A stretch of DNA of 22,476 nt from Nannocystales bacterium. Lineage in GTDB: Bacteria > Myxococcota_A > Polyangia > Nannocystales > Nannocystaceae. Of this stretch, positions 5,161 through 22,476 are shown in pieces (the first letter of the stretch is position 1; the number at the start of each line of letters is the position of its first letter). The position numbers were made by a program, and so were the translations under genes. The notes beneath the pieces are model-generated. The model was not told where the DNA came from and ran no database searches. It saw only the letters and a program-made list of their open reading frames with translations. The DNA lies in contig JBOEGF010000071.1 of NCBI GenBank assembly GCA_050633305.1, positions 1 through 22,476 of the forward strand, read 5' to 3'.

Positions 5161-5262
5161 GCCCCGGAGCGTACCGGGGCGTGGGGCGGTCCATGCCCAG
5201 CGGAAACGGTTCTGCGCCGGTCCGCCTTGCCTCGGCTCTCACACTGGAGTACATGGTCGCAC

Positions 5263-7510: not shown

Positions 7511-7516
7511 CTTCAG

Positions 7517-7558
7517 TACACACGGCAGGAGTCGAACCTGCGACTTTCGGCTTCGGAA
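7517..7558 (-). tRNA. 3' half of tRNA-Arg(CCG): truncated fragment serving as attachment site of the integrated element
   Basis: Minus strand reads TTCCGAA (anticodon loop, CCG), GCCGA, AAGTC, GCAGG TTCGACT CCTGC (T arm), CGTGTGT, A. The 5' anticodon stem, D arm and 5' acceptor strand are absent. Confidence 0.85.
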
Positions 7559-7689
7559 ATGGTGAAAACGGGCTCCCATGGAGTACCGCCAAGGGCCTAA
7601 AACTGCCCTGAACCTGTCCCTACGAGGGGGCCCAGAGCGCTTTCAGCTGGCGTCGATGGTAGTCGTCGGTAGCTTGTTGGAGACGTCTT

Positions 7690-9075
7690 ATGCCCCCCGA
7701 GCGTCCCCTGGAATCACCACCTTCTGGCCGTCGAGACCGTCCGTCCCGGTCTCGCGTCTTGTCCGACCGGCAGCTCCAACGCCTGCCGATCGGCGAGCAC
7801 GCCGTGGGTCAGGTCCCCGGCCTCGTCGTCCGAGTGCGGGCGAAGAGCGTGAAGATTTTCGCCCTGCGATACCGAAACGACGCTGGGAAGAAACGCATCC
7901 TCACCTTGGGTCGGTACCCCGACGAGTTGTCCTTGGGCGATGCTCGCGCACGGGCCAGCGAGGCACGGCTTGCGATTCGTGAGGGGCGGGACCCGTTCGC
8001 GGAGCGCACCGCGCGGAAGCGTGCCGCGGAGGAGAACGGGGAGAGGACGATCGAAACTGCAATCGGCTGGTGGCTGGATGGTGTCGAACGCAGACTCTCG
8101 CCCTCGACGCTTCGGACGTACCGGACGTCGGCACGCAAGTTCGGTGACTGGGCGAAGCGTCGCGTGTCGCTCGCGTCTGAGCTGGACCGTGGGGCCCTGG
8201 CGAACTTCCGGGCGTTCCTCACCACGCAGCCGAAGGCTCTCCCGGCCCGCGGGAAGGGCCGCGGCCGCAAGCGGGTTACAGAGGCCCGGTGCTCCCCGGT
8301 CGGAGTCAACCGCGACCTCCGGTGCGTGAAGACGATGCTCGGTGCGTTGCGGAAGGCGGGCTGGCTACCGCTGCTCGACAGCGACGCGATCACGGACAAC
8401 CTCGCGGCTCTGCCGATCCCGCACGAGGCCCCGCGGTACTTCTCCAAGCTCGAGATCCGCCAGCTCCTGGCCGCCTGCCAGGAGCACGACGAGTCGATTT
8501 TCAAGCAGACCAGGTTCGAGCATGCCCGTGGGCTTCCTGGGGGGACGCCGAGACACCCTCCGATTCGCCCGTTTACCCTGTTCCTCCTCCTGACTGGATG
8601 TCGCCGGGGCGAGGCTTTGTCGCTACGGTGGACGGACGTGGATCTAGATTCGGTTGACCAGGATGGGAAGCCTCTGGGGGAGCTGCGCCTGCAGGCTTCT
8701 GACGTAAAGACACGAACGGCGCGAACGGTCTTCCTCGACCACACTCCCTTGTTGCGCTCGATGCTGATCGAGATGCGCGACAACGCGAAGGGAGAGCGGG
8801 TCTTCGAAGGCCTCACCGCCGGAGCTGTTGAGTCTGCGCGCAAGCGCTTGTTGCGAGAGCACAGCGCGATCGCGTTCCTGTGGAAGGACTTTAGGTCAAC
8901 GGCGGCGACATACCTGACGAATGCGTCGGGGATCTTCGGGTCCGCGACGATTCACCAGTCGGCGCGGCAGCTTGGCCATAGCGCGGCTGTTGCTGAGCGG
9001 CACTACCTTGGCGTGCTGCGCGGGATCCCGAAGACGGCGAGGACGCTGGAAGAGGCGATGGGGGTGGAGGGGTGA
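7690..9075 (+). CDS. int: Tyrosine recombinase/integrase with N-terminal arm-binding domain
   Basis: Arm domain 'VPGLVVRV...FALRYR...KKRILTLGRYPDELSLGDARARA'. Catalytic LTGCRRGE (R), KTR (K), KDFR (HxxR position), LGHS, RHY (Y). The start could be slightly downstream. Confidence 0.93.
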   Translation: MPPERPLESPPSGRRDRPSRSRVLSDRQLQRLPIGEHAVGQVPGLVVRVRAKSVKIFALRYRNDAGKKRILTLGRYPDELSLGDARARASEARLAIREGRDPFAERTARKRAAEENGERTIETAIGWWLDGVERRLSPSTLRTYRTSARKFGDWAKRRVSLASELDRGALANFRAFLTTQPKALPARGKGRGRKRVTEARCSPVGVNRDLRCVKTMLGALRKAGWLPLLDSDAITDNLAALPIPHEAPRYFSKLEIRQLLAACQEHDESIFKQTRFEHARGLPGGTPRHPPIRPFTLFLLLTGCRRGEALSLRWTDVDLDSVDQDGKPLGELRLQASDVKTRTARTVFLDHTPLLRSMLIEMRDNAKGERVFEGLTAGAVESARKRLLREHSAIAFLWKDFRSTAATYLTNASGIFGSATIHQSARQLGHSAAVAERHYLGVLRGIPKTARTLEEAMGVEG

Positions 9076-10667
9076 GGTCACAGGACGAGCTACCTGAAGT
9101 GCACTGGGCCGTTGCGCACCAGCGTGCACCCGCCGTTGACCCCTTCGCCGCGCCGCCTTGGGCCGTGCCGCATCCGGCGGAGCACGAGCACGCATGTGGC
9201 GGGTCCGACGAAATGCCATCGGTGTCTTGCAACCTCGGCCCGTCGTTCAGACCGGAGGGGTTGCCGGACTCGGAGTGGGAGGAGCGTCCAGAGCATGTTG
9301 ACCCTGAACCCAGGCTAGACGCCGCGCGTCGCCAACTCGTAGAGGCCGCTGAGAGACGTGGACTCGCGGAGCGGTTCTCGGTCAAGTTCTCGTGGGCGTC
9401 GAGGGCAAGCGGCGCAATCGACCAGGAGGAACTCGTACAAGCTGCGCGGATGGGGATCGTTCGCCGTGCAGCGAGCTTCAAGCCGAAGACCGGAACGTTC
9501 GAGGGTTGGTTCCGCAGTGCGAGTGCGAGCGTTTTGGTGGCGAGCGAACGGTTCACAACGTGGGTGCGCCTGGGGGCCAAGGCCGAGATTCGGGCGCTCA
9601 TCGACTCCTCCGGACACGACGTCTCGCTTGACCGTAACCATCGCGAGAGGCTCCGCAGGCAAGAGAAGGCGGCTGAGCTGTTCGACACGATCATGGGCCG
9701 GGCGCCTACGACGGATGAGCTTGCCTTCGTGCTCGGCACCACGCCCGATAGGGTCGCGCCTTTTCCTGGGCGAGCGGAGCCGCAAACGGAACTCGGGCGG
9801 GCAGAGCCCAGCGATCGGAGGGGGGTCGCCGGCGATGAAGACGTGGGGTGGGCAGACGTTGTCGCGAATGGACACCGCACCTCCGGAGTACTCGAAGAAT
9901 GGGATTTCTCCGCTCCCGAGGCACTCGAGGAAGAATGGGCTAACACGGCTTCTCCGGTGGTAGTCGATGCGGAGACGACCCCCAACTCGCAAAAGGCCCA
10001 AGGCGCAGAAGCCCTTGAGCCCGCAGACCGGATATATCTCCACGTGTACGGTCGCCGGTCCCCCTTTACTGAGAGGCTTCGTAGGCTGGCGGGAGAGCGG
10101 GCGGTGGCAGGGCGGAAACGACTCGCTGCCGCATTTGAGCGCGCCTCGAGGGCCCACAAAGCTAGCGACCCCGACTTCGCAGATGCCGCAGAGGTTTTCC
10201 GCCTCGCGTGGCTCTCGTGGGAGAGGGAAGTCGCATGGGAACGGACCCAAGCGCTAGCACCCAGAGCGAGGCCGCTGGCGCAGCCCTCGATGTTGAATCC
10301 TCAGACGAGAGAGTTTGGGAAGGCACTCGGGAGGATCTTTCCGCAACTCGGAAAGCAGGTCCCGGCCGTACAACCGCGGCCGAACGCGCGCCGCGCCGCT
10401 CGTACGTGGGTGTCCGCGGTCTTGGACCAGGCGCCGGGGCTATCCTCGAAGTCGCTCGCAGCGTTCGTACGCGGGGTCGAGGGTCTCCGCGCCGATGGGG
10501 CCGCGGGCGGGCGGACAGTAGTGGAACTTGCGAGGAACGGCCGGAACGTCTCGGTGGTGTTCGCCAACGGCGAAGCGCTACACGGCCGTGCGGTGGGTCG
10601 AGCCCTTGATGAGGAAAAAAAAATGCGAGGGCGGGCCGCTACCGGGGCACCGGAAGCCAGTGTGTAA
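9072..10667 (+). CDS. Divergent sigma70-like protein (regions 2 and 3 recognisable, region 4 degenerate) with N- and C-terminal extensions
   Basis: AARRQLVEA and EELVQAARMGIVRRAASF (region 2.1-2.2), RFTTWVRLGAKAEIRALI (2.3-2.4), MGRAPTTDELAFVLGTTPDRV (3.0-3.1), GDEDVGWADVV (3.2). GTGA overlap with the integrase stop; start uncertain. Confidence 0.7.
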   Translation: MRSQDELPEVHWAVAHQRAPAVDPFAAPPWAVPHPAEHEHACGGSDEMPSVSCNLGPSFRPEGLPDSEWEERPEHVDPEPRLDAARRQLVEAAERRGLAERFSVKFSWASRASGAIDQEELVQAARMGIVRRAASFKPKTGTFEGWFRSASASVLVASERFTTWVRLGAKAEIRALIDSSGHDVSLDRNHRERLRRQEKAAELFDTIMGRAPTTDELAFVLGTTPDRVAPFPGRAEPQTELGRAEPSDRRGVAGDEDVGWADVVANGHRTSGVLEEWDFSAPEALEEEWANTASPVVVDAETTPNSQKAQGAEALEPADRIYLHVYGRRSPFTERLRRLAGERAVAGRKRLAAAFERASRAHKASDPDFADAAEVFRLAWLSWEREVAWERTQALAPRARPLAQPSMLNPQTREFGKALGRIFPQLGKQVPAVQPRPNARRAARTWVSAVLDQAPGLSSKSLAAFVRGVEGLRADGAAGGRTVVELARNGRNVSVVFANGEALHGRAVGRALDEEKKMRGRAATGAPEASV

Positions 10668-10740
10668 GTAGAGGCCCCGAGCGATGGTGCACGCGGCTTC
10701 TCAAACGTCGACACCGGGCGAGAGCCCAGGAGAAACCGCC

Positions 10741-10956
10741 ATGCACACACCTTCCCACACGCCAGCCCCCGCGACAGGCCATGTCCGAGTCCGCCCCTCT
10801 TCGATCCGCCGCGCTCGCCAGATCGCGCCCCGCGTCGGTCTCGTCGTAGACGCCGGCGGGAGGGAGCGCGTGCCTACGCATAGCGACGTGCTTCGCGAAG
10901 CGGTCCGCCGCGGGTTGGAATCGCTGGAGGCCGAGTTCTGCGGGGGGTCGCGATGA
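10741..10956 (+). CDS. Ribbon-helix-helix (CopG/Arc-like) regulator
   Basis: Beta-strand HVRVR, helix SSIRRARQIA, second helix THSDVLREAVRRGLESLE; AGGAG RBS upstream. Confidence 0.6.
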   Translation: MHTPSHTPAPATGHVRVRPSSIRRARQIAPRVGLVVDAGGRERVPTHSDVLREAVRRGLESLEAEFCGGSR

Positions 10957-11183
10957 CGCTCGAACTCGACAATCTGCCGCCGATGCTGGTCGCGAGCGAG
11001 GTCGCGACGCTACTGAGGATCAAGACGAAATCCGTTTGGGAAAGACGTCGCCTGGGCAAGCCGCCGCAGGCGGTCAAGGTTGGTGGCCGACTGCTCTACC
11101 CCCGCGACGACGTCCTGGCGCTGCTGCGACCCACCGCGGAGCCTGCCGCGAACGACAGCGGTACGGAGGTTCGGCATGGTTGA
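10953..11183 (+). CDS. AlpA/excisionase-like helix-turn-helix protein
   Basis: 'MLVASEVATLLRIKTKSVWERRRLGKPPQAVKVGGRLLYPRDDVLALL'; ATGA-coupled to the RHH gene. Confidence 0.85.
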   Translation: MTLELDNLPPMLVASEVATLLRIKTKSVWERRRLGKPPQAVKVGGRLLYPRDDVLALLRPTAEPAANDSGTEVRHG

Positions 11184-11448
11184 GGTCGACTACGAAGCCC
11201 GACGGGCCGAGGCCGACCTCGTGATCCTGCGCTCCGATGTCTGGCGAGCCCAGGCGCATGAGCGCGAGCTTGCCCAGCCACTCGCCGACTCATTCGACGA
11301 GCGGTTGGCCGAGACCTGCCGCGAGTTCCCCGAGGTGCCTCCGGCCGAGGTCCGCCGAGGCATGCAGCAGCTCGACGCGTGGACCGTCATGCGGATGGGC
11401 CAGATCGCCTGCCTGGCCCCGCTTGGGCACCTGTCTTCCGTCCGATAG
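11176..11448 (+). CDS. Hypothetical protein
   Basis: GGAGG RBS before ATG 11176; overlaps the AlpA stop; 90 aa, helical-looking. Confidence 0.6.
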   Translation: MVEVDYEARRAEADLVILRSDVWRAQAHERELAQPLADSFDERLAETCREFPEVPPAEVRRGMQQLDAWTVMRMGQIACLAPLGHLSSVR

Positions 11449-11477
11449 CTCCACGTAGGCGGTGTGCGTCTGCGTTG

Positions 11478-11542
11478 GGCCTCCCCAGCGAAATCGCTGC
11501 TGGGGTCTGTTGCTCCCCGTGGTTCGGGCCCACGGGGAGCAA
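11478..11542 (+). other. Intergenic double hairpin upstream of the primase gene (candidate attenuator or structured RNA)
   Basis: CCCCAGC...GCTGGGG stem (11483-11505) and a 13-bp perfect stem TTGCTCCCCGTGG/CCACGGGGAGCAA (11510-11542). Confidence 0.5.
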
Positions 11543-11594
11543 GCGTATTCCAACCTGCCCGCGCACACAGGCCGCCCGAGTGCCTGCACACCAC

Positions 11595-13793
11595 ATGACG
11601 ACCACACCGGACTTCGTAGAACACTACAGAGCTAACGGTTGGGCCACGATTCGAGCCCACGCCGCTTCCAAACAACCCATCGGAGCTTGGCAGGGCCGCA
11701 CGGACGAGGCCGAGGACTTCGGTCCGGGGGAGAACGTCGGGGTACGCCTCGGCGCTCCCTCGGGCGGTCTCGTCGATGTCGACCTCGATTGCGACGAGGC
11801 GGTCGCACTCGCCCCACTGTACCTCCCGACCACAGCCACGTTTGGTCGCGCCTCGAAGCCGAAGTCCCATTGGGTCTACCTGTGCCCCGAGCTTGACCGG
11901 TCCAAGAAACCGCCGAACACCGGGGTAGAACTCCGAAGCACGGGGCTACAGACCATCGTGCCGCCCTCGATTCACACCTCCGGAGAGGCCATCGAGTGGA
12001 CCGATGCGTCGCCGGTGGCAGCCGTGGCCGGGACGGAGCTGCTCCCTGCGTTCGGAAGACTGGTCACCGCCACGGTGCTGGCCCGTTGCGCCCCAAAGCT
12101 CCAAGAGGGCAGGGGGATTCACCACGCGGTCCTGGCCGTCGCTGGAGCCATGTGGCGTGAAGGCGCTACAGCGGAACAGGCTCGGGCGGTCATCCTCCCA
12201 GCGCTCGAGCTTCACGCGGGCCCCGACAACGGGCACAGGTTCGAAGCCATTGACGCGACATGGGACGAAGGCAACGACCGCAACCGTTCGGGCTGGCCCA
12301 CGGTCAAGGAGTTGTTCGGCGACGTCGCGACCACCGCCCTGAAACGCTCGGTAGAGCTGTGGACAGAGCCGGCACGTGTTGAAGAGGACGAAGGCCGGCC
12401 TCAGGTCGACCTCAACGGCGATTTGGGCGAGGCAGTCGACCAGGTCGTCGAGATCCTCGCCCGTCGCCCGTCAGAGCGCGCGCGCCTGTTCCGAGGGCAG
12501 GGAGCCCTTTGTACGATTGATGGGCCGTGCGACCACAACCGTCTCGCCGTCGAACTCGCACGGCTGATCGCATTCGTTCGCGGAAACCAAAAAGGAGGCT
12601 CGGTGCCGGCGCTCCCGCCACGAGAGTTCGTCGCGCGACTGGCCTCCGTCTTGGCTCTGGACGAGCGCATCCCCGAGCTACGGGGCACGTGGTCGGGTCC
12701 GCTGCTGCACGCCGACGGGTCGGTCCGCACGGAGGCCGGCTACGACAGCGACACCAAGTTGTGGTGCGAGGGGTTCGCGGGTGGCCCCGAGACCGGTACG
12801 ACCCACGAGGAGGCAGTCGCCGCAGCCCAGAGGATTCTCGGGTTCGTTCACGCCGGGCAATGGCAGGGGCCCGAGGACGTCGGGGCGTTCCTCGCTCACG
12901 TCCTGACGGTCGCCGCCCGGCCGATGATCGAGGGCAGCGTTCCTGCTTTCGTCTACAGTGCGTCGGCGACTGGGGCCGGGAAGACGACGCTTGCGAGGAT
13001 GGCGGGCCTTCTCGGCGGGGGGTGCTCGGACTACACGGAGCCCAGCGTCAACGACGATGCTGAACTCGCGCGGCGACTCGACGAGCACGCGCACCGTCCC
13101 GCGGTCGTCCTCGATAACCTCCGCGGCGTGTTCCGTACGGCTCTCCTCGAGGGAGCCGTCACCGGCGGGACTCTCCCGGTTCGCCGGCTCTATATCGGCC
13201 CTGTTGTCGTTCTGTGGCGTGCTGTCCTCGCGATCACCTCGAACGGCGCGGAAATCGGCCGCGATTGGGTCCGCCGCTCGCTCCCCGTCCGGCTCGCTCC
13301 GGCGAAGCTCGACACGAAACGGGACCTGCTCGAGGAAGCCGAGGGCGACCTGCAGCTCCGCGCGGACGCGGTGACCATCGTGCGTGCCTGGCTCCTCAGC
13401 GGCGAGGAGCCGGCGTGTGCCTCGCTCGCTTCGTTTGCCGAGTGGAGCCGCGTGGTGGCGGGCGCGGTCGCGTGGGTTGGCGGTGGAGACATCGTGACCA
13501 CCTCACGGGCGGCCGCAGAGGAGCTTGCGGCGACGGACGAGGACGACAGCGGGATCCTGGATGTCATCGCCGACTGGCTCAAGAAGACAGGCCGGACAGA
13601 CTTCTCCAGCCGCGAACTCTACGATGCCGCGCAGCTGCCCGCAGCACGGCTCGGCCCCCTGGGGGAGGCTCTGGGCGAGTTTGCCAGCGTCCGGAAGCTC
13701 GCCCGGCGACTCGCACGAACCCACGACTCGCGTCGTGCCATCACCTACAAGACCGTCCGGGGTACCCGGCGCTGGATGATCGTCGATCGCTAA
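11595..13793 (+). CDS. Bifunctional primase-polymerase (Prim-Pol) fused to a P-loop helicase-like domain
   Basis: Prim-Pol motifs NVGVRLG, LVDVDLD, SHWVY, ELRSTGLQTIVPPSIH. C-terminal Walker A ATGAGKTT, Walker B VVLDN and ITSN (SF3-like). Start at ATG 11595. Confidence 0.88.
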   Translation: MTTTPDFVEHYRANGWATIRAHAASKQPIGAWQGRTDEAEDFGPGENVGVRLGAPSGGLVDVDLDCDEAVALAPLYLPTTATFGRASKPKSHWVYLCPELDRSKKPPNTGVELRSTGLQTIVPPSIHTSGEAIEWTDASPVAAVAGTELLPAFGRLVTATVLARCAPKLQEGRGIHHAVLAVAGAMWREGATAEQARAVILPALELHAGPDNGHRFEAIDATWDEGNDRNRSGWPTVKELFGDVATTALKRSVELWTEPARVEEDEGRPQVDLNGDLGEAVDQVVEILARRPSERARLFRGQGALCTIDGPCDHNRLAVELARLIAFVRGNQKGGSVPALPPREFVARLASVLALDERIPELRGTWSGPLLHADGSVRTEAGYDSDTKLWCEGFAGGPETGTTHEEAVAAAQRILGFVHAGQWQGPEDVGAFLAHVLTVAARPMIEGSVPAFVYSASATGAGKTTLARMAGLLGGGCSDYTEPSVNDDAELARRLDEHAHRPAVVLDNLRGVFRTALLEGAVTGGTLPVRRLYIGPVVVLWRAVLAITSNGAEIGRDWVRRSLPVRLAPAKLDTKRDLLEEAEGDLQLRADAVTIVRAWLLSGEEPACASLASFAEWSRVVAGAVAWVGGGDIVTTSRAAAEELAATDEDDSGILDVIADWLKKTGRTDFSSRELYDAAQLPAARLGPLGEALGEFASVRKLARRLARTHDSRRAITYKTVRGTRRWMIVDR

Positions 13794-13940
13794 ATATCGC
13801 TATTTCGTCGGTGGTGGCTCGGGTGACCACCCCCCCTACTCAGCGTGATCAGTTTTTCTTATATAGGGGGAGATGGGCGGGTGGGTCACCTGAAGCCACC
13901 TAACCCACGAATAGCGCTATCTGATCGCTATTAGCGATAG
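13785..13940. promoter_or_regulatory. Putative replication origin: long imperfect inverted repeat around an AT-rich core, with ATCGCTA repeats
   Basis: Arms about 13798-13838 and 13864-13916 flank GTTTTTCTTATA. ATCGCTA/TAGCGAT occurs at about 13786, 13796, 13924 and 13932. Lies directly after the primase-helicase stop. Confidence 0.6.
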
Positions 13941-14031
13941 CTCGCGCATGTCCTTCGCAGGCATGCACCCAACACCCACGCGCCCCGGCTCGGTCTTCCC
14001 CGCGCCGGATCGCGGGCGTGCCTACAACCCA

Positions 14032-14313
14032 ATGAACGAACCCACACAACCGAAACTCCCCTGGTCCTCCGTGCGTGAGGCTGCCGCTGCCGCCCTCGAA
14101 GACCTCGACAACCCAACGGCATGGCTGGCCCTGCTCGACGCCACCACGAGGTACCAACAGGCGGCCTCTGCCGGCCTCAACCGCGGCACCCGTTTCCGCC
14201 TGGTCGCCTCGATTGCAGGTCGACCGGATGGCACGACCGAGGAGCGGCTCGCTGCTTGCTCCGCCCTTGCGTCACTCCCCAGGCCGGCCGCCGCGGTTGC
14301 GCGCGTGCACTGA
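14032..14313 (+). CDS. Hypothetical protein
   Basis: Ala/Leu-rich helical ORF in the + strand gene run; start uncertain (13948 or 14032). Confidence 0.55.
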   Translation: MNEPTQPKLPWSSVREAAAAALEDLDNPTAWLALLDATTRYQQAASAGLNRGTRFRLVASIAGRPDGTTEERLAACSALASLPRPAAAVARVH

Positions 14314-14339
14314 CCCCAACCCCACGAACGCCCGACACC

Positions 14340-14651
14340 ATGATCGAAGACACCACGACCGCCGAACCCCTCGGCCTCGTCGAACTCGCCGCAGAATCCC
14401 GCACACTTCTGGTCCACGTCGCTGAGGACCCGGAAGAAACTCCCGAACGACGCAATCACGCTCGAGTAGGACTCATGCGTATCCTCGACGACGAGGAACT
14501 GGACACGCTCCAAGCAGCGATGTCCGGGAACCGAGAGGACGTCCGGCTCTACTGTGGCGTGATGGCCTACACCCTCCTCGGCCCCGAGCCCTCGCCTGAG
14601 GAGTTCCGCTACTACGCCAGCGCAGTGCTGGATTCAGGTGCCAATGGCTAA
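14340..14651 (+). CDS. Hypothetical acidic protein
   Basis: MIEDTTTAEPLGLVELAAES...; overlaps the start of the next gene, as in an operon. Confidence 0.6.
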   Translation: MIEDTTTAEPLGLVELAAESRTLLVHVAEDPEETPERRNHARVGLMRILDDEELDTLQAAMSGNREDVRLYCGVMAYTLLGPEPSPEEFRYYASAVLDSGANG

Positions 14652-15192
14652 GGGGAAGCGCGCGCCATCGCCCCCCCGCACGGATGCTGTCAACTGCCAT
14701 AGCCGACGAGGCCGACGCGTCCAGCTGTCCGAAGATGCCCTCCTACGTGCCCTGGAGTCCGGCAAGGACGTTGACACCATTGCCTCCGCCAACAGGTGCT
14801 CTCCCCGAACGGTCGCCCGTCGCATCGCCGCCGCACGTGCTCTCCACGGGCCAGGCTGGGGTAGGCCGTCAGACCCCGAACCTCCACCAGCGCCCAAGCT
14901 CCCCCCGATCCCGACCAGCGGCGTTCCCGACTGGGCGGGCCTGGTAGACGCCGGGCGCGGCGTCGTCTGGCAGGGGATCAACGGAGAGCTGAGCCCAGAC
15001 CCCAAGGACCGTTTGAGGGCCTGTGAGGTCGCTTTCCGTCATGCGGACACGCTCCGGTCCGAGGACCGCGGCCACGAGGAGGTCGACCACGCAGACCTCC
15101 TCGCACGCATCGAGGCGGCAACGGCCCCGCCGGAGCCCAACGTGTCCGAAGGGGACCTGGCCCCCGAGGGCACAGGCGCACCGGGCGCATAG
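14644..15192 (+). CDS. HTH protein, possible terminase small subunit
   Basis: N-terminal HTH 'DALLRALESGKDVDTIASANRCSPRTVARRI' and later 'DPKDRLRACEVAFRHA', reminiscent of TerS oligomerisation helices; located after the replication module. Confidence 0.45.
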   Translation: MAKGKRAPSPPRTDAVNCHSRRGRRVQLSEDALLRALESGKDVDTIASANRCSPRTVARRIAAARALHGPGWGRPSDPEPPPAPKLPPIPTSGVPDWAGLVDAGRGVVWQGINGELSPDPKDRLRACEVAFRHADTLRSEDRGHEEVDHADLLARIEAATAPPEPNVSEGDLAPEGTGAPGA

Positions 15193-15198
15193 GGCCGA

Positions 15199-15269
15199 GG
15201 CGGCAGGCGCTGGGCCTGTTTCGACCGAATAGGCCCAGCGCTGATCATGGGCGATCGCCCATAGCCGCC
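15199..15269. repeat. Nested inverted repeats upstream of the serine recombinase
   Basis: GCGCTGGGCCTGTT/AATAGGCCCAGCGC (15207-15241), perfect 16-bp palindrome ATGGGCGATCGCCCAT (15247-15262), outer GGCGGC/GCCGCC pair. Confidence 0.7.
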
Positions 15270-15315
15270 CAGGCACGCCGGTTGCGGCCCATCCGGTCCC
15301 GGTTACCACCATCCC

Positions 15316-16110
15316 ATGCCCCGCGCCGTCGCCTACATCCGAGCGAGCACCGCCGACCAGACCCAGACCCTCGACGCCCAGCGCGAGCGGATCGCCGCCT
15401 GGGCCGAGCGCGAAGGGGTCGAGGTCGTCGCCTACCACGTGGACGCAGGGGTCTCGGGCACCACGCCCGCCCACAAGCGCACTGGGCTGACCGACGCCCT
15501 CCTCGACGTCGAGACACACCGCGCTGATCTCCTCGTCGTCACCACGCGTGACCGCCTCGCCCGGTCGGCTCTCGACGCCGCCCTCCTCGACCGCGACCTC
15601 GCCAAGCTCAAGGCCCGCGTGGTCGCTGTCGACGGCGACGCAGCCAGCAACGCCGACACCGATGAAGGCCGCCTGGTCCGCACCATCCTCGACGCCGTCG
15701 CCGAGTACGAAGCGGCGAGGACCCGAGCGCGCACCCGGGCGGTCCTCCGCCACCGTCGCCAGCAGGGCCTCCGAACAGGCGGCCGCCTGCCCTACGGCTT
15801 CGACGAACTCGAGGGGCGCCTCATCCCGTACGAGCCCGAGCAGAACGCACTACGCCGGCTCTACGAACTCTCAGACGCCGGCATGTCCCAGCGCCGGATC
15901 GCGACCATCCTCGACGCCGAGCGATGGCCCACCCGTGGCGAGAAGTGGCACCGCTCCTTGGTGCGGCGCCTGCTCGAACGACGGGCCGAGAACGTCCCGG
16001 CGGCCGCGGAGGACCGCTGGGTCTATGGGTCAATGGGTCTAGCGTCGCGGCAGGATCTCTTTCCGGAGCAGCACGATCAGTTCCCCCAAGCACGCATAAG
16101 CTCGAACTAA
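15316..16110 (+). CDS. Serine recombinase (resolvase catalytic domain plus partial recombinase DNA-binding domain)
   Basis: AVAYIRASTADQ (catalytic Ser), DAGVSG, R-x-GL, RDRLAR, AEYE, GGRLPYGF, GMSQRRIATILD...KWHRSLVRRLL. Confidence 0.9.
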   Translation: MPRAVAYIRASTADQTQTLDAQRERIAAWAEREGVEVVAYHVDAGVSGTTPAHKRTGLTDALLDVETHRADLLVVTTRDRLARSALDAALLDRDLAKLKARVVAVDGDAASNADTDEGRLVRTILDAVAEYEAARTRARTRAVLRHRRQQGLRTGGRLPYGFDELEGRLIPYEPEQNALRRLYELSDAGMSQRRIATILDAERWPTRGEKWHRSLVRRLLERRAENVPAAAEDRWVYGSMGLASRQDLFPEQHDQFPQARISSN

Positions 16111-16746
16111 CGGGTCTTCCCCTCCGCCCTCAGCATCGACAGAGGCCGCGACGCTCACGAATCGGTGGATCAGCAGCCCTGCGTCCTCTGAAACGTACAA
16201 CATTGCAGCAAACGCAGCTCCTTGCATCGCCGTCGTGGCTTCTCGGAACGCCTCGCCGGCCTGGACTTTGATTGCTGTGTCGGCCGCGACCACGCCTGCG
16301 GCGTGGTACATCCCCGCATCGCTCAGGAAGACAGAGGCCTGCGAGTAGAGGGTTTCGACAGTCTCCAGTCGCCTGGCTTCGAACGCCTTGGTACGTTCCG
16401 CTTCAAGGGAGAGGGAGTGTCGACGCAGGTCGTCCGTCTCGTTCCGAATGGCGTCGACCTGATCTCCCACGGTCTTCAGATATGCCTCGGCGTCCTTCCG
16501 AAGCGACATTTCGTGGCTTAGGAGCCGAGTCTTCGCGCCTTCGTCCAGGTCTGTCTTCACCGCAGCTAGACGAGTCTTCATGCCCTCATCCAGCGTCGTC
16601 TTCACTTTGGCCAGGTCCTCGGCGGTAGTCCGCTCGATGGTCTTCTTGACGAGGTGCCAAAATATCCCGAGCACCCCTAAGAAGACCAACGCCGCCAGGG
16701 GCGTGACGCCGAAGCCAGTCTCGATCAGCTTAGCTACGTCCTTCAT
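16039..16746 (-). CDS. Membrane-anchored coiled-coil protein (paralog A)
   Basis: N-terminal TM LAALVFLGVLGIFW, heptad-rich middle, motif HSLSLEAERTKAFEARR. Confidence 0.75.
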   Translation of the reverse strand: MKDVAKLIETGFGVTPLAALVFLGVLGIFWHLVKKTIERTTAEDLAKVKTTLDEGMKTRLAAVKTDLDEGAKTRLLSHEMSLRKDAEAYLKTVGDQVDAIRNETDDLRRHSLSLEAERTKAFEARRLETVETLYSQASVFLSDAGMYHAAGVVAADTAIKVQAGEAFREATTAMQGAAFAAMLYVSEDAGLLIHRFVSVAASVDAEGGGEDPLVRAYACLGELIVLLRKEILPRR

Positions 16747-16812
16747 CCCCGGACCGTAGAATACTCTAGCGCACTGCGTGCGTTCCCGGTAAAGCTCCCA
16801 ACTCGTCCGCGA

Positions 16813-17700
16813 TCAGCCGGGCTCTACAGCTTCGGTGGTCGGGCTCGTCCCAGGCTGCGAGTGCGGCGTCTCTCCAGTCGGAAGGGTTTCCCCCTCGACG
16901 TCGTCGCTGGCATCGGGCGACCGTTGCCCGGATCCTGGGGAGGTGAGGCCGGTCTGGACAGGGGAGAGCAGCTCGCCCCGCAACGCGACCAGGAGGCGGC
17001 CGATCGTCCGATGGGCGTCGTCTGAGGTCGTAGCGACCTGGCCGAGAGCCATCATTCGTTCGTCGCTGCCCGGGGGCGCGCCCACGAACTCTGATATCGC
17101 CTCACTCGTCTTGGAGAACACGCCGCAGGCCTTGAGCAGCACCTTGTAGAGGTCGCGGGACAGATAGAGCGAGGCAACCCGGGCTGACTTGTAGACGTCG
17201 GCAACAACGCGCGCGCAGTCACTGCGGACCCGCTCCATGACCTGCTGAGCCTCGCGGGGAGGGAGATCCTCCTCGGCGGCCTCGACCGAGATCGCGCCCA
17301 TGGTGAGAAGGTGGAACAGCTCGTTTGCCTCGGCTGCCAGCTCCGCACAAAGCTCCGCCCGCCTCGCCTCGAAGTTCCGCCGTCGCTCCGCCTCCAGCCC
17401 GAGCGAGTGTGCCCGTAGCTGCTCCGCCTCACGCTCAACGCCGCGCAGCTCCGACCGCAGCGCCGCCAGGCTCCGCTCGTGCTCCCGCTGCTGCGCGGTG
17501 AGCCGGTCCGCGATGTCCGCCTTGTGGTCCTCGAGCTTCTTCGCGAGGTCGTTCCGGTGTCCGTCGATCCCCTGTTGGATCGCCGAGTCCAGCCCGCGCT
17601 CGAACAGCTTGCGACCGACCCAGACGCCCGCGACTACGAGGCCGGCCGCGACAACTGATCCCCCAACGTAGTCCAGTACGAGATCGAGCGATTCGAACAC
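16813..17700 (-). CDS. Membrane-anchored coiled-coil protein (paralog B)
   Basis: N-terminal TM GGSVVAAGLVVAGVWVG, coiled coil, motif HSLGLEAERRRNFEARR. Start set at GTG 17700 by comparison with paralog A. Confidence 0.75.
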   Translation of the reverse strand: MFESLDLVLDYVGGSVVAAGLVVAGVWVGRKLFERGLDSAIQQGIDGHRNDLAKKLEDHKADIADRLTAQQREHERSLAALRSELRGVEREAEQLRAHSLGLEAERRRNFEARRAELCAELAAEANELFHLLTMGAISVEAAEEDLPPREAQQVMERVRSDCARVVADVYKSARVASLYLSRDLYKVLLKACGVFSKTSEAISEFVGAPPGSDERMMALGQVATTSDDAHRTIGRLLVALRGELLSPVQTGLTSPGSGQRSPDASDDVEGETLPTGETPHSQPGTSPTTEAVEPG

Positions 17701-17812
17701 GGACAGGACTCTACCAATCCCGGGGCCCCACCGGCCCCTCACCCGAACCGGGCCCACCCGCACGAACGCGGAGCCCACAACCCACCGTGGAGGAAACCCA
17801 GATGCCCGAAGG

Positions 17813-18028
17813 ATGAAACCCAAGAAGACCCCCCGACACACCACCGAACTCTCTGAGTTCCTGATCTGCAAATGCGGCGACCCGTTCTGCGACGGTACCG
17901 ACCCGGCCGGGAAGCTGAAGCCCCGGCGACCGGCCGACTACATCGAGAAGAACGAGTCAGGAACGTTCCGAGCCGCCGCTCGGGCCCGCATCGACGGACT
18001 CAAGAAACGCCGTCGCCGATACGGCTGA
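17813..18028 (+). CDS. Small basic protein with CxC-x4-C cluster (possible metal-binding)
   Basis: ICKCGDPFCDGT motif and Arg/Lys-rich ends; followed by a terminator-like hairpin. Confidence 0.5.
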   Translation: MKPKKTPRHTTELSEFLICKCGDPFCDGTDPAGKLKPRRPADYIEKNESGTFRAAARARIDGLKKRRRRYG

Positions 18029-18038
18029 ACGACAACCC

Positions 18039-18078
18039 GCCGGCCTCTACCTCGCTCGAGGTCGGGGCCGGCTTCTTT
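18039..18078 (+). terminator. Rho-independent terminator
   Basis: GCCGGCCTC-T-ACCTCG/CGAGGT-C-GGGGCCGGC hairpin followed by TTCTTT. Confidence 0.6.
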
Positions 18079-18101
18079 CGACCCAACCCACGAACCGAAC
18101 C

Positions 18102-18560
18102 ATGAGACCCGAAGAACAAGCCCTTCGAAACATCGGCATGCCCCACCGTATCGATGTTCCCCCAACCCTCACCACCGAGATCGCCGACACCCTCGGCCTG
18201 ACACCCGCAGACACGCAAGCGTTGGCCGACCACCTCGCCCAACGTACTCCGCATCCGAACGGCGCGCCCGAGTTCGACGTCGGCCAACCCGTCGCTCCGT
18301 TCGCAAGGGCACTCGCAACCAACTACAGCGACGACGGCCTGAGCCGCCTCGCTTCGCTGCGCGGGCTACACCGCCAACGGGACGAAGCGGACGCGGACCT
18401 GCGCACCCGCCTCATCGCCGACGCGGGTGCCCGCGTGCTCACCGGTGACCAACTCACGACGTTCGCGACCCTCCGCGGCTTGACCCGTGGGCCAGACGAA
18501 TCCGATCCGGAGTTGCGCACACGACTCCTCGCCGACGCCGTCGCTCGCCTCGCGGCCTGA
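18102..18560 (+). CDS. Small protein with two baseplate-J-like 'L..LA..RGL.R...E.D..LR.RL' repeats
   Basis: GLSRLASLRGLHRQRDEADADLRTRL and GDQLTTFATLRGLTRGPDESDPELRTRL. Start 18102 or 18138. Confidence 0.65.
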   Translation: MRPEEQALRNIGMPHRIDVPPTLTTEIADTLGLTPADTQALADHLAQRTPHPNGAPEFDVGQPVAPFARALATNYSDDGLSRLASLRGLHRQRDEADADLRTRLIADAGARVLTGDQLTTFATLRGLTRGPDESDPELRTRLLADAVARLAA

Positions 18561-18568
18561 ACCACCCC

Positions 18569-18991
18569 ATGCCGAGAAGTAGAAAGCCCGAATCCAATCT
18601 TGAGAGCGTGGCGGACGAACTCGCCCACGCCCTTGGCTCGTCTCCCGAGGACAGACAGTCGCTACGCGAACACCTCGCCCGGCCGATCCCCGATCCCGAC
18701 CGCGTCATCACCCACGACCTGGATCACCCGATCGCTGGCTTCGGTCGGCTGTTGGCCGCGGCCTACACGGGCAACAGCCTGAGCCTCCTTGCGGCCAAGA
18801 GGAACCTGCACCGTCGCCGCGACGAATCCGACGCCAGCGTACGCGCCCGACTCTGCGCGGACGCAGCGGCTCGTCTTGCGTCAGAAGCCGAGGTGCGTCG
18901 TCGCCTCATCGAGGACGGCGAGGCTCGTTCCAGAGTCGATGCCATGGAACAGGCCCGCCCGTTCTCGAAGAACCACTACTTCAACACCTAG
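18569..18991 (+). CDS. Paralog of the preceding gene with one baseplate-J-like repeat
   Basis: Shared N-terminus (ELAHALGSSPEDRQSLREHLA vs EIADTLGLTPADTQALADHLA) and GNSLSLLAAKRNLHRRRDESDASVRARL. Confidence 0.65.
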   Translation: MPRSRKPESNLESVADELAHALGSSPEDRQSLREHLARPIPDPDRVITHDLDHPIAGFGRLLAAAYTGNSLSLLAAKRNLHRRRDESDASVRARLCADAAARLASEAEVRRRLIEDGEARSRVDAMEQARPFSKNHYFNT

Positions 18992-19009
18992 CCCCACCCA
19001 ACGCCCGCC

Positions 19010-19789
19010 ATGACCAACACGAAGAAGAGAATCCACCCACTCTGCGAAAAGTACCCAGACGTCTCGAGCCCCGAGGCACACATCGCTTCCTTCGAAGCAG
19101 CCGCCCGCGACGCGGAGTCGTTCGAGGACGAAGACGTCCGCGAGAAACTCTGGCTCGGAGTTCAGGCCGGGGGAACGATCAGGAAAGTCGGTTCCAAGTA
19201 CGCCATCGTGGTCGACGTGCCTGAGAAGGCGCTCCGACACATCGCCCGGTACGAGCACGGCGAGAGGATCGGGTACTGGGATGGACACATGAGCCAACGG
19301 ATCTGGAACGAGCTGTTCCCGAACAACGAGCTTGGGCAGGAGCCGATTCCGGACCTTCCCCCGATGCCCAGTGTTGACGCGCTCGCGGCCGAACTCGCAT
19401 CCGATCGCGGGCTGTTTGGCTACACCACCGACGACGACGGCCTCATCGTTCACGCTCCGTTCGGTGGCGAGCCTGCCGGCGCGCAGACTCGTTTCGCGCT
19501 GAGGACTCGGACCTGGCCCGGGTCTATCGCGGCAGCCGCAGCCGCGGTGTCTCAGCTCCAGGGGTATGCGGCGCAACGAAACGAACTCGTCCTCGCGCTT
19601 TGCGGAGACGACACTCGGGCGGCCTGGTGCTCGTCCATGCGCGAGCGTGTCGAGGTTGTCGATGCGGTCGCACTCGGGGAGCTGCATCCGACCTCGGATG
19701 AGGAACTCACTCGTTGGGCGTTCGCGGACGCGTCGCGCTGGCGCCTCGCCCGGGCATCGTTCCTCCGTCTGCAACCCGCCGCAGAATGA
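19010..19789 (+). CDS. Hypothetical protein
   Basis: 259 aa with protein-like composition; stop overlaps the DUF2213 start (ATGA). Confidence 0.7.
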   Translation: MTNTKKRIHPLCEKYPDVSSPEAHIASFEAAARDAESFEDEDVREKLWLGVQAGGTIRKVGSKYAIVVDVPEKALRHIARYEHGERIGYWDGHMSQRIWNELFPNNELGQEPIPDLPPMPSVDALAAELASDRGLFGYTTDDDGLIVHAPFGGEPAGAQTRFALRTRTWPGSIAAAAAAVSQLQGYAAQRNELVLALCGDDTRAAWCSSMRERVEVVDAVALGELHPTSDEELTRWAFADASRWRLARASFLRLQPAAE

Positions 19790-20919
19790 AGCGCTATCGA
19801 CGATATGACTTCGTTTGCCCCTTCGTGTTCCGGGACGAGGCTCCATCCCGGACGGTTGGGTCAGCGACCCACACGGACGAGGGCTACCTGCAGGTCGACG
19901 GCTACCTCGCGCGCTCGGGCCTCCTCGAGTACTCCGACGGCGTCGAGAGCTGGACGGAGTACCGATCAAAGCAGGAGGTACACGAGGCTGCGGCCTCCTG
20001 GCTGCGCACGCCGGTCACCGACGAACACCCCGAAGAAATGGTCGACTCGTCCAACTGGACGCAGCTCGCCCGAGGCCATCTCCTCCACTCGGTCAGCATC
20101 GAGACGCTGGCGGACGGGGAAGACTACATCCGAGCTTCACTGCTCGTGACCGACTTGTCGCTCGTCGACAAGATCACCAACGCTCGCGGACCTCGCGAAC
20201 TCTCGATCGGATTCACGGCGGCAATCATGCCGACCGAGAACGGTCTCGCCGACGACGGCACCCGCTGCGACGCGGTCCAACTCTCACTCGAAGGAAACCA
20301 CGTCGCAGTGGTCTCCAAGGGCCGAGCAGGCCCCGCGGCGCGTCTCCTCATGGACGGAGCCGCCTACCTCAGCATGAACCCACGAATCGACACCTCCAAG
20401 AAGCTCGTACAGATCGTCGGCCCCGACGGTCGGCCCTTCCAGGCCCCCGCGTGGCTCGCTGCGATCTACGAGAAGACCCTGGTTCCCAGCCAGCCGCAGC
20501 CGGCCGCACCGGCAGCCCCAGCGGCTCCGCCTCCTGCACCCGCACCTGCGGCACCGGCAGCGCCGCAGGCACCGGCCATGGCCCAACTCGACGTCGCCGG
20601 GGAGTCGGTCGAACTCCCGCAACAGCTGGTGTCTCAGCTCCAGGCCTTTCTCGCGACGCCGGAGGGGCGGGCGGCCGAAGACCGCGCGATTGCGGAACGA
20701 GGACACGCGGCGGATGCCGCGGAGGTAACCAAGGAGTTCATGGTTCGCAGCGGCTTCGACGGAACAGGGGACATCTCCTATGCAATGTTTGAGGCATTCA
20801 AGCAGCGCAGGATGGCCGCTGCCGCTGCCGACGCGCCTCGACAGGACGCAGCGGACGAAGACGAGGTCGACGAGGACCATCCCGCGGTTCAGTTCATGGT
20901 CCGCAACGGCTACCGCTGA
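19786..20919 (+). CDS. DUF2213-family phage head protein (putative prohead protease with scaffold-like C-terminus)
   Basis: Motifs TDEGYL...ARSGLLEY, YRSKQEV, PVTDEHP, RELSIGF, DAVQ...NHVAVVSKGRAGPAARL, then a Pro/Ala linker and acidic tail. Start ATG 19786. Confidence 0.85.
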   Translation: MKRYRRYDFVCPFVFRDEAPSRTVGSATHTDEGYLQVDGYLARSGLLEYSDGVESWTEYRSKQEVHEAAASWLRTPVTDEHPEEMVDSSNWTQLARGHLLHSVSIETLADGEDYIRASLLVTDLSLVDKITNARGPRELSIGFTAAIMPTENGLADDGTRCDAVQLSLEGNHVAVVSKGRAGPAARLLMDGAAYLSMNPRIDTSKKLVQIVGPDGRPFQAPAWLAAIYEKTLVPSQPQPAAPAAPAAPPPAPAPAAPAAPQAPAMAQLDVAGESVELPQQLVSQLQAFLATPEGRAAEDRAIAERGHAADAAEVTKEFMVRSGFDGTGDISYAMFEAFKQRRMAAAAADAPRQDAADEDEVDEDHPAVQFMVRNGYR

Positions 20920-20932
20920 CGGAAGCCGGCCC

Positions 20933-20960
20933 GCCGCCACGTCACCTTCGGCGTGGCGGC
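20933..20960 (+). terminator. Hairpin after the DUF2213 gene (no U-tract)
   Basis: GCCGCCACG/CGTGGCGGC 9-bp stem. Confidence 0.35.
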
Positions 20961-21008
20961 CCAGAACGAGGACTGGATAGACCGCCGGCGAGGAGCTAGT
21001 GGTGGAGC

Positions 21009-21416
21009 GTGAAACGTCTCGCGCTTTCTTGTGTGCTGGTGCTCGGCTGCGACATGTCCGAGGAGGACATGCTCGCGGCGGAGGCGACGGAGATTCGATT
21101 CAGCGAGTCCGCTCCGGGTGACCCGGTGCGGGTCGACCCGTGCGACTACACCGACGACCCCGGATTCGTTCTCACGCCCGACGAGGTGTTGGTGCCGGAC
21201 CTGTGCCTCTCCCTGATCCCGAACGTCGAAAGCTGTTGGGTCTCAGACTACGACGAGCCCAACGACCTGGACCCACTCCCCGGAGCACCCGAACTCGACA
21301 TCTGGTGCGAGTTCGACTGCGACGGGGAGGGGCTCGAGGTCGCGCGTGTGCTGGCGAGCTTCCCTGGCCCCGACGAGGGGCCAGAGCACTACGCTATTCC
21401 GAATCCGTGTCTTTGA
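21009..21416 (+). CDS. Acidic Cys-containing lipoprotein
   Basis: GGAG RBS; MKRLALSCVLVLGC lipobox; six further Cys; Asp/Glu-rich. Confidence 0.65.
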   Translation: MKRLALSCVLVLGCDMSEEDMLAAEATEIRFSESAPGDPVRVDPCDYTDDPGFVLTPDEVLVPDLCLSLIPNVESCWVSDYDEPNDLDPLPGAPELDIWCEFDCDGEGLEVARVLASFPGPDEGPEHYAIPNPCL

Positions 21417-21528
21417 GTGGTGGGGAGGAGGAGTGACGCCTGGGATGCCTGTTCGCGTCGGACGCTGTGCTGCGGTGTCCAGAGCAACTTGGCCAACTCG
21501 CTACCTGGAGCGAGACGCTAGCCTCTGC

Positions 21529-21906
21529 TCACACATCTTCGCCGGCATCGGAGTCTTGGGCGTTGAGCTGTTCGACGGGGGATGGGAGCGGAACGGACTC
21601 TTTCTGCTCCTCGTGGGCCGGCACTCGAAGGTGCTCGAACCGGTAGATCGCGTAGAGGACCAACGAGGCGCCGAAGAAGCAGAATACGAGGCCCGGGCCG
21701 CCGCGGCCAAGCGTGAACTCCACCCCTTGACCGGCCGATTCCGGAAGCTTTGCGCGGATTTCGGCTCCGCCGAGGAACACACCTTCGATGAACAGTCTGT
21801 AGCCCAGGTACGCGAACATGCCGCCGAGGCCAGCGACAGATACAGGGAACCCGTTCTTCTTCGGGTCAAGGAGGGCCCCGAGTATGCGTTCGGCTGGTGA
21901 TGCCAT
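21529..21906 (-). CDS. Small two-TM membrane protein
   Basis: TM1 VSVAGLGGMFAYLGYRLFIEGV, a beta-like loop, TM2 GPGLVFCFFGASLVLYAI. Confidence 0.65.
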   Translation of the reverse strand: MASPAERILGALLDPKKNGFPVSVAGLGGMFAYLGYRLFIEGVFLGGAEIRAKLPESAGQGVEFTLGRGGPGLVFCFFGASLVLYAIYRFEHLRVPAHEEQKESVPLPSPVEQLNAQDSDAGEDV

Positions 21907-21984
21907 TCGTAGATATCGTGAGCCTAACAAGCTTGTCTGGAGGCCACCAGGGCATTCCCGACTAGCGCGCCCTCCGGCCGACGA

Positions 21985-22476
21985 CTAGTCGCCAGATTCC
22001 TGTGAATCCGCTGCGCGAACTTGGCAGCGACGGACGTCCCGGAGGAAATCCGGCATTTGAGGTCCGCAGATCGGTGCATCGCCCCCTAAGTGGAAGGTGT
22101 CGTCGTGTCGTTCGACATTCTCCGCGCCCACTAGGATCTCTAGACGCCGCGCGAGTTGTTCGGCGTCCCAACGTCCCCGTGCAACTAGGCGGACGGACAG
22201 ACCGTCGACACACACGACCTTCAAAACTCTGCACCGGTCGTGGGGGGGAGTGGCAGGCAAGCTGTCGGGGCGGGCGACCTCGTCGCGCTCCCCACCGTCC
22301 ACATCGTCCGGTGGAGAGAGCACTACTCCTCGGCCGGTCTCGTCGCGATCTCCACCGTCCACATCGTCCGGTGGCGCCAGCACTACGCCTTGGACGCCAG
22401 TATCGACCATCCCCGAGTTTAGTTGCCGATAGTTCTCTTGAGAACCGGCGATCCAGCGTAAGTCCTCGCCGTAGCA
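21985..22476 (-). CDS. Hypothetical protein, 5'-truncated by the window edge, with an internal 20-aa repeat
   Basis: The frame stays open from 22410 to the window end (CYGEDLRWIAGSQENYRQLNSG-M...). Confidence 0.5.
   Translation of the reverse strand, partial: CYGEDLRWIAGSQENYRQLNSGMVDTGVQGVVLAPPDDVDGGDRDETGRGVVLSPPDDVDGGERDEVARPDSLPATPPHDRCRVLKVVCVDGLSVRLVARGRWDAEQLARRLEILVGAENVERHDDTFHLGGDAPICGPQMPDFLRDVRRCQVRAADSQESGD
22279..22390. repeat. Two-copy tandem repeat, 60-bp period
   Basis: CTCGTCGCG...CCACCGTCCACATCGTCCGGTGG...AGCACTAC.CCT at 22279-22330 and 22339-22390; encodes GVVL(A/S)PPDDVDGG(D/E)RDE. Confidence 0.85.

Follow-up and report, generated by a model that had tools for sequence, protein, structure and literature searches.

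An att-bounded island at tRNA-Arg(CCG)

We analysed a 22,476-bp stretch of DNA from a Nannocystales bacterium (contig JBOEGF010000071.1 of assembly GCA_050633305.1), here called the window, whose right-hand part holds an island inserted at a tRNA gene. The window is the entire contig C71 of genome G000, an assembly of 90 contigs that is 92% complete; G-numbers denote compared assemblies and phages, C-numbers contigs, P-numbers database proteins and L-numbers loci. A sequence-only reading of this DNA had proposed that the island is a phage satellite of a new type that parasitises a DUF2213-type myophage.

The left border of the island is a 44-bp repeat (7515–7558, minus strand) that copies the 3′ end of tRNA-Arg(CCG) and is 100% identical over 44 bp to positions 3301–3344 of contig C24, where the intact tRNA-Arg(CCG) gene lies at c3302–3376. 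The proposed tRNA attachment site is thus present, but the element starts at 7515 and not at 7552. The rightward extension suggested at the time leads to C24, and the C71 and C24 parts give a minimum element size of 18,267 bp plus the insertion sequence. In four of six genus relatives (G001, G003, G004 and G005), the empty site is exact, with a GFA gene directly beside the tRNA; in G006, the wider flanks are present and separated by other small genes, and G002 has the right flank only. Because of this empty-site arrangement, we take the left side of C71 and the right side of C24 to be the true host flanks. The island is real and bounded.

Twenty window open reading frames (ORFs) were scanned against Pfam and PHROGs, and NCBIfam was also used. 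The calls of a tyrosine integrase, an HTH_17 regulator, a Prim-Pol/helicase, a serine recombinase and a DUF2213 protein are firm. The integrase (7690–9075, plus strand), already recognised from the sequence alone, has an open frame with an Arm-binding domain (Arm-DNA-bind_3, 1e-15; phrog_1, 4e-39), and its catalytic R, K-x-x-R, H and Y motifs are present when read by eye. The regulator (10953–11183, plus) matches HTH_17 above the cut-off (3e-6), phrog_66 and, weakly, MerR_1; it is an excisionase-like helix-turn-helix (HTH) protein in an AlpA-like position, but the AlpA family itself, to which it had been assigned, was not matched. The Prim-Pol primase-helicase (11595–13793, plus; 7e-13) is as predicted. 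Its N-domain is 76% identical to that of the prophage in G006, and its C-domain is 48–51% identical to related phage contigs.

Right after the primase stop codon, long imperfect inverted arms surround an A/T-rich core (13798–13915). None of 200 shuffles folds as stably (z −5.18), and a comparable hairpin follows the primase in four of five other primase loci (all except G006), which have z-scores between −3.2 and −6.9 when compared with mononucleotide shuffles. Since this layout recurs after other primases, the proposed identification of the region as an origin is supported. In G068, L085 6939–12518 and L086 5486–9033 hold integrase–HTH–primase starts that resemble the left arm of the island, both cut by contig ends, and L085 carries the same post-primase inverted repeat.

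Downstream, an HTH and helical protein (14644–15192, plus) had been called TerS-like. It is 41% identical to a gene of the G006 prophage and 39% to a gene of the G003 island described below, and it is homologous to phage genes, one of which precedes the large terminase subunit (TerL) gene when viewed by eye (E 0.004). There is no match to a TerS family, and the fold searches were uninformative, with no match at E ≤ 0.001; the only family match is to an HTH, and the gene may encode a small terminase subunit.

No virion module accompanies these genes. Major capsid protein (MCP), portal, TerL, sheath and baseplate J were found neither in the window nor in the genome: 26 of 240 related-phage proteins matched G000, none of them an MCP, TerL, portal, sheath or baseplate protein. 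Terminase_6N is absent from the genome, and a baseplate-J hidden Markov model gave nothing significant among the 8,372 ORFs of G000 and the element proteins, including two mini-proteins discussed below. MCP and sheath queries matched in one of five genomes (G006), and the TerL family in two of five (G006 and G001; control matched in 5 of 14), in neither case in G000 or G003; phrog_264 had no match in G000, and its control likewise matched nowhere. The absence of capsid, portal and TerL genes noted from the sequence is therefore borne out across window and genome. The DUF2213 myophage prophage that the earlier reading advised looking for in the same genome was not found by the search with the 240 phage proteins, but such a phage does exist in the same genus (G006).

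The right end of the window (22458–22476, plus) is an IS66 terminal sequence at the contig break, missed in the earlier reading, and C24 starts with an IS66 terminus as well. As the 8-bp target duplications flanking IS66 do not match and ORFs are cut on both sides, some DNA has been deleted or is unassembled at the junction, and an IS66-linked deletion has probably damaged the present copy. The element continues at C24:21–3344 with a truncated ORF, a weak sigma-70 r2 gene, HigB/HigA, a Schlafen AlbA_2 gene and the att/tRNA. A virion module in this stretch would point to an ordinary prophage; we examined it and there is no such module.

We consider it very improbable that the island is an ordinary prophage from which IS66 has recently removed the structural region, or whose structural region is simply unassembled. 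Such a history would explain the mismatched duplications and the ORFs truncated on both sides of the gap, and a genome that is 92% complete leaves room for it, but none of the 90 contigs contains structural remnants and the scaffold of the island is not of the phage type. Moreover, the G003 scaffold gene has no structural block behind it: within ∼130 bp comes the ORF that is truncated on C24, there in full length. The IS66-flanked contigs C46, C48, C62, C7, C22 and C12 were considered as the missing middle and rejected, showing no phage structural genes by eye or tblastn. IS66 is multi-copy in G000, at the ends of C2, C7, C11, C12, C16, C17, C22, C24, C34, C46, C48, C56, C65, C69 and C71; some of these ends can be paired through an 8-bp target duplication, but several cannot, which suggests rearrangements.

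DUF2213 protease, remodelled scaffold and mini-proteins

The lone head gene of the island (19786–20919, plus) encodes a DUF2213 prohead protease (2.5e-31; phrog_530 head maturation protease, 1e-42) fused to a scaffold (∼20377–20919), and DUF2213 is single-copy in the genome, in agreement with the original call. His81 and Ser140 of the protease are invariant in the alignment, and the protease domains of the element type group with that of the G006 phage (support 89/99, not starred; 28 rows). The scaffolds of this protein and of P0002 and P0003 comprise 165–184 residues, compared with 193–268 in the other 24 full-length rows, and all three proteins are without a helix that most phage versions carry. 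A fold search with the DUF2213 model, which is of low confidence (predicted local distance difference test score 45), gave no match at E ≤ 0.001.

When the scaffold alone was used as query, five proteins were retrieved: two stand-alone homologues (186 and 200 aa), P0003 and two matches that were dropped as low-complexity or repeat. In G003, too, the scaffold gene stands alone. The remodelled scaffold is thus present in six divergent proteins, three of them stand-alone, and the stand-alone form is 150–200 aa long and without protease. None of 11 phage-type proteins has more than one copy of the phage C-terminal motif F-[LM]-x-x-x-G-Y (F-x-x-x-x-G-Y), and four of five element-type database proteins have two; P0002 has one match and, by eye, a degenerate copy, and the second copy in G003 lies across a frameshift. 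A significant tandem duplication of the hairpin-helix motif was rejected, the second unit being seen only in the alignment and in predicted secondary structure. Judged from these comparisons, the gene combines an intact protease with a re-engineered scaffold that has lost the phage helix and doubled the C-terminal motif, an arrangement that is new here.

Two paralogous mini-proteins, 42% identical to each other, are encoded further upstream (18102–18560 and 18569–18991, plus). They had been described as baseplate-J-like. Direct comparison with a baseplate-J profile gives an hhalign probability of 5.8%, and the support is indirect: a profile of the minis ranks three baseplate-J proteins as the top three of the 240 phage proteins (E 0.075–0.31; a fourth ranks low), an Atlas structure search returns GpJ and wedge clusters first (template modelling scores 0.36–0.37), and the slot of the two minis in G003 holds the N-terminal half of a baseplate J, 73% identical to that of G006 (phrog_6, 2e-19). 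Because profile rank, structure search and synteny agree, derivation from the N-terminus of baseplate J or a wedge protein is likely, not proven. The minis are under purifying selection, with a dN/dS of 0.33 and an observed pN/pS that was reached by 2 of 450 neutral simulations.

A sister island and related myophages

A second att-bounded island, inserted at a different tRNA in G003, carries the gene set again, which answers the concern that the window holds a one-off decayed prophage. The G003 island is 12.7 kb long, lies between 48-bp repeats at tRNA-Asn(GTT) and is split over two contigs with a 1-kb overlap (94% identity). Eight genes are common to both islands in the same order, with 35–65% identity: the TerS-like gene, the serine recombinase, the coiled-coil genes, the ORFs starting at 17813 and 19010, the scaffold module, the ORF truncated on C24 and AlbA_2. 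No primase and no virion genes were found in the G003 island, and its integrase is of a different type, 66% identical to that of the G006 prophage. Since the two islands differ in tRNA site and integrase, the common core moved after it had formed. A tRNA-Ala call inside the G003 serine recombinase was taken as spurious.

The serine recombinase (15316–16110, plus), missed in the earlier reading, is intact, with a Resolvase N and a partial Recombinase domain (3e-31). It is followed by two paralogous membrane-anchored coiled-coil ORFs (16039–16746 and 16813–17871, minus). The 71-aa ORF with a Cys cluster (17813–18028, plus) was found only here and in G003 (64% identity), in 2 of 400 class genomes, and the 259-aa orphan (19010–19789, plus) was likewise detected in this island and G003 only (2 of 72 family genomes). 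For seven of the eight common genes, dN/dS was computable and lies between 0.31 and 0.68, compared with 0.09 and 0.17 for two host genes; the common genes are selected, but loosely. Homologues of the serine recombinase (∼60%) also occur in other mobile regions of G003 and G004 (L036 15077–15874, L038 15217–15978 and L040 near 19343), one of them near tRNA-Arg(CCT).

Wider searches added no further locus. The remodelled-scaffold alignment gave 83 pattern matches in IMG/VR, none of which was confirmed, and three matches in the 400 class genomes, two of them the input genomes and the third a weak one in G243 (1.8e-5, in a 662-aa frame); the 72 family genomes yielded one extra weak match with an internal stop. 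For ORF 17813, none of 13 IMG/VR matches was confirmed, and a primase scan of IMG/VR gave one marginal match. ORF 19010 found only itself in the protein database, and its Atlas search was uninformative. ORF 18102 had no match among longer proteins, and the five weak extra matches of the mini-protein profile in 72 genomes are unrelated host proteins or off-frame.

The DUF2213 relatives sit in myophages ordered protease–scaffold, decoration, MCP, tail, baseplate, TerL and portal. One of these, G075, is complete (52,348 bp with terminal repeats), and the islands measure 0.35 (this island) and 0.24 (G003) of its length. A profile scan of the genome contigs with the DUF2213 alignment detected a G006 contig only. 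G006 is a fragmented, 72%-complete assembly of the same genus with a temperate myophage whose integrase lies at tRNA-Met(CAT); we assume that its prophage contigs form one prophage. Its matches to the island are the closest, with 76% for the primase N-domain, 59% for the protease, 55% for ORF 21009 and 41% for the TerS-like gene, and the attachment sites all differ (Arg-CCG here, Asn in G003 and Met-CAT for the G006 prophage). DUF2213/phrog_264 myophages (the G006 prophage and G072–G075) are the source of the protease, the TerS-like gene, the primase domains, baseplate J and one integrase, but in the phages the scaffold is canonical and decoration, MCP, tail, TerL and portal genes come after it; the islands have none of these. 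The myophage family related to the G006 prophage comprises L102–L104 (G075), L105–L109 (G074 and G072) and L060–L064; in G075, the tail genes precede TerL, portal and a Mu-F-like gene, which lie well away from the TerS-like HTH gene and the protease–scaffold–MCP block.

This relationship raises the alternative that both islands are a reduced, cryptic prophage lineage, that is, a G006-type prophage minus its virion genes whose fragments drift slowly and are not preferentially packaged. Many genes are indeed nearest to that one prophage (primase N-domain 76%, baseplate J 73%, integrase 66% and protease 59%), and the IS66 damage, the truncated baseplate J and missing primase of G003, the relaxed dN/dS and the rarity of the islands are all in keeping with decay. 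We nevertheless regard this explanation as unlikely. That the islands sit at different tRNA sites and use different integrases implies movement after the common core had formed, and gene order is unlike that of the phage, with no decoration or MCP gene after DUF2213. The doubled motif and selection on the duplicated minis represent gains rather than decay; the related phage sets, in which G006 is only 72% complete, yielded no serine recombinase, ORF 17813, ORF 19010 or remodelled scaffold.

Two islands of G001 (L042 3275–18519 on C91 and L134 3456–17516 on C60) are 14–15 kb long and, at tRNA-Thr(CGT) and tRNA-Arg(TCT), are framed by 45-bp repeats. Both carry an integrase gene in distal position, along with a serine recombinase and a TerL-like gene (78% DNA identity between the two), and neither matches the capsid or portal of the related phages. 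They are possibly a TerL-carrying variant of the same backbone.

Comparison with known satellites and a candidate mode of action

We compared the island with known satellites. Like the Gram-negative phage-inducible chromosomal islands (PICIs) EcCICFT073 and PmCI172 (SatelliteFinder type B), it has a tRNA att, an integrase, an HTH regulator, a primase-helicase, an ori and a TerS-like gene, no full virion or lysis module, and perhaps about one third of the helper size (PMC6092414, 10.1101/2022.09.14.508007). By the published criteria in these sources, the left arm would work like that of a type-B PICI. Integrase and att lie at a non-prophage locus, as far as the one related prophage that could be mapped, at tRNA-Met(CAT), shows. 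The HTH_17 gene takes the place of the AlpA/MerR/Stl homologue without matching Pfam AlpA, and and the primase-replicase module with ori is present here but was not found in G003. A capsid morphogenesis gene of known type is absent, there being no capsid homologue; that gene is optional in type B (10.1101/2022.09.14.508007). No structural, tail or lysis gene is intact, yet the prohead protease and the probable baseplate-J stubs are present, and tail genes are forbidden in the PICI detection model as that source gives it. As to size, PICIs are ∼12–15 kb, one third of their helper; this island has at least 18.3 kb with the junction gap, its sister 12.7 kb and the phage 52.3 kb.

Because the small terminase, the size and the lack of structural genes do not clearly agree with the PICI definition, we do not class the island as a member. 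It differs from PICIs further in its DUF2213 protease–scaffold, baseplate-derived stubs, serine recombinase and sigma-like genes, in a sister without primase, and in having many genes close to helper-type phage genes rather than PICI-exclusive ones. The int–HTH–primase–ori–TerS backbone is ordinary and PICI-like, so that the novelty claimed for the element could rest on the interference cassette only.

Capsid-forming PICIs can carry a head serine protease and TerS (10.1101/2022.09.14.508007), but the island is without their MCP, portal, TerL and head-tail adaptor and connector. The P4 markers Sid, Psu and Delta are not among the 20 ORFs scanned, and the complete head, tail and lysis modules of an intact prophage are missing, with the junction gap remaining. 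RepA, CapR, NixI and LidI, the markers of PLEs (elements resembling phage-inducible chromosomal islands), do not appear by name in the general scans, a search with PLE-specific profiles not having been made. TcaP of PLEs is an external scaffold. Vibrio PLEs, with their TcaP, Rta and chimeric tails, resemble the island in a sigma-70-like gene (10.1101/2022.09.14.508007) and in carrying tail or baseplate parts of their own (TMP, TAC and BhuB), but those are described as full substitutes (PMC12987554), whereas the stubs here are N-terminal only. Replication relies on RepA in PLEs and on Prim-Pol here, and the candidate helper of the island is temperate. Marine satellites are described as carrying a TerS close to that of co-occurring phages (PMC9618062).

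The nearest parallel for the scaffold is CpmB of Staphylococcus aureus pathogenicity islands (SaPIs), which shares a RIIK motif with the helper scaffold and uses it to bind the same capsid site (PMC6893505). Both are short scaffold-like proteins that keep the C-terminal motif of the helper scaffold. The island motif is F-x-x-x-x-G-Y and doubled, its module can occur as part of a protease fusion, and no CpmA equivalent was identified; no kinship in sequence with CpmB is claimed. By analogy with CpmB, the C-terminal motif would bind the capsid protein.

The explanation that we favour, to which we give about an even chance, is that the island is a PICI-like phage satellite of Nannocystaceae, assembled from components of the ∼50-kb temperate DUF2213 myophage of the genus and equipped with an interference cassette that consists of a scaffold mimic and baseplate stubs. 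The absence of a virion module, the recurrence and the same-genus phage speak for the proposal that the island parasitises such a myophage. Several observations weigh on the other side. No helper prophage was found in this genome, DNA of unspecified length may be missing between the mismatched IS66 duplications, and the G003 island is without primase in an assembly whose frameshifts may be assembly errors. There are only two loci with known context, with no new locus in the 400 class genomes or IMG/VR, and P0002, P0003, P0018 and P0019 are known as proteins without genomic context. The contig of P0003 measures 13.5 kb and that of P0018 7.8 kb. The hhalign value of the minis is not significant by itself, the TerS-like gene matches no TerS family or fold, the second hairpin-helix copy reaches E 0.2–0.9 in two of six element-type proteins and is undetected in four, and dN/dS of the island is well above that of host genes.

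If the island is such a satellite, helper infection would lead to its excision and replication from its own ori, and the TerS-like protein would guide the TerL of the helper to the DNA of the island. The scaffold, which may in addition be produced by itself from an internal Met at 20377, would compete with the helper scaffold for capsid protein via its doubled C-terminal motif, as SaPI CpmB does. Small or aberrant heads would result and might be matured by the protease of the island itself, while the baseplate-J stubs would poison or modify wedge assembly and HigBA and Schlafen would be defence or stabilising cargo. Together, this suggests that the island hijacks or blocks the related phage.

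HigB/HigA (L001 1515–2221, on C24) matches the PD-Lambda-2 models A (7e-20) and B (4e-17), the latter over the N-terminal part of B, which could be taken to mean that the island is an anti-phage decoy, in which scaffold and baseplate mimics are kept only as dominant-negative inhibitors of myophages beside HigBA and Schlafen and packaging is not hijacked. Schlafen AlbA_2 is present in both islands, the primase-less G003 island retains the cassette, and stand-alone scaffolds do without a protease. The primase, the ori, the TerS-like gene and the intact protease (His81, Ser140) would serve propagation and not sabotage, however, and the size is satellite-like; we therefore judge a pure decoy improbable.

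The literature searched contains no paper that pairs phage satellites with myxobacteria or Myxococcota, and the DUF2213 papers found, judged from less than their full texts, do not include one on a satellite. We tentatively entertain a bolder version of the satellite reading: a first myxobacterial satellite family, in which the re-engineered protease–scaffold shows the capsid-binding motif twice and is an independently evolved, CpmB-like internal size redirector, the paired minis block or tune helper tail assembly, and the G001 TerL islands are a second packaging variant. If the island is indeed a satellite, it would trace how a satellite gene arises from a helper gene, from an intact phage scaffold through a protease with remodelled scaffold to a stand-alone scaffold. 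It would also supply a specific peptide motif for capsid binding or size control and a candidate baseplate-wedge inhibitor, and it suggests that detection models forbidding tail genes would miss such elements.

The remaining genes of the island are less informative. The protein encoded at 9072–10667 (plus) has partial r2/r3 similarity to sigma-70 below the cut-offs (Sigma70_r2, 1e-3), which makes the sigma-like factor of the sequence-only reading a weak call, and the small ORF that had been called a ribbon-helix-helix protein (10684–10956, plus) has no match in Pfam, PHROGs or NCBIfam. Further small ORFs lie at 11176–11448, 13948–14313 and 14340–14651 (all plus). A promoter and terminator scan gave results at or below chance. 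A signal- or lipoprotein-like ORF (21009–21416, plus) is 55% identical to a G006 prophage gene near the phage integrase. Two cargo ORFs follow on the minus strand (21529–22457), the last open at its 5′ end up to IS66 and containing a 60-bp tandem repeat (85%; 22271–22390). Elsewhere in G000, an integrase with 37–41% identity to those of G003 and G006 heads another island together with an excisionase-like gene (C28 16097–17462). Outside the island, a 686-aa, secreted-looking Cys-rich ORF (window 4891–6951) lies between the AraC and GFA genes and is seemingly absent from the same spot in the four empty-site relatives.

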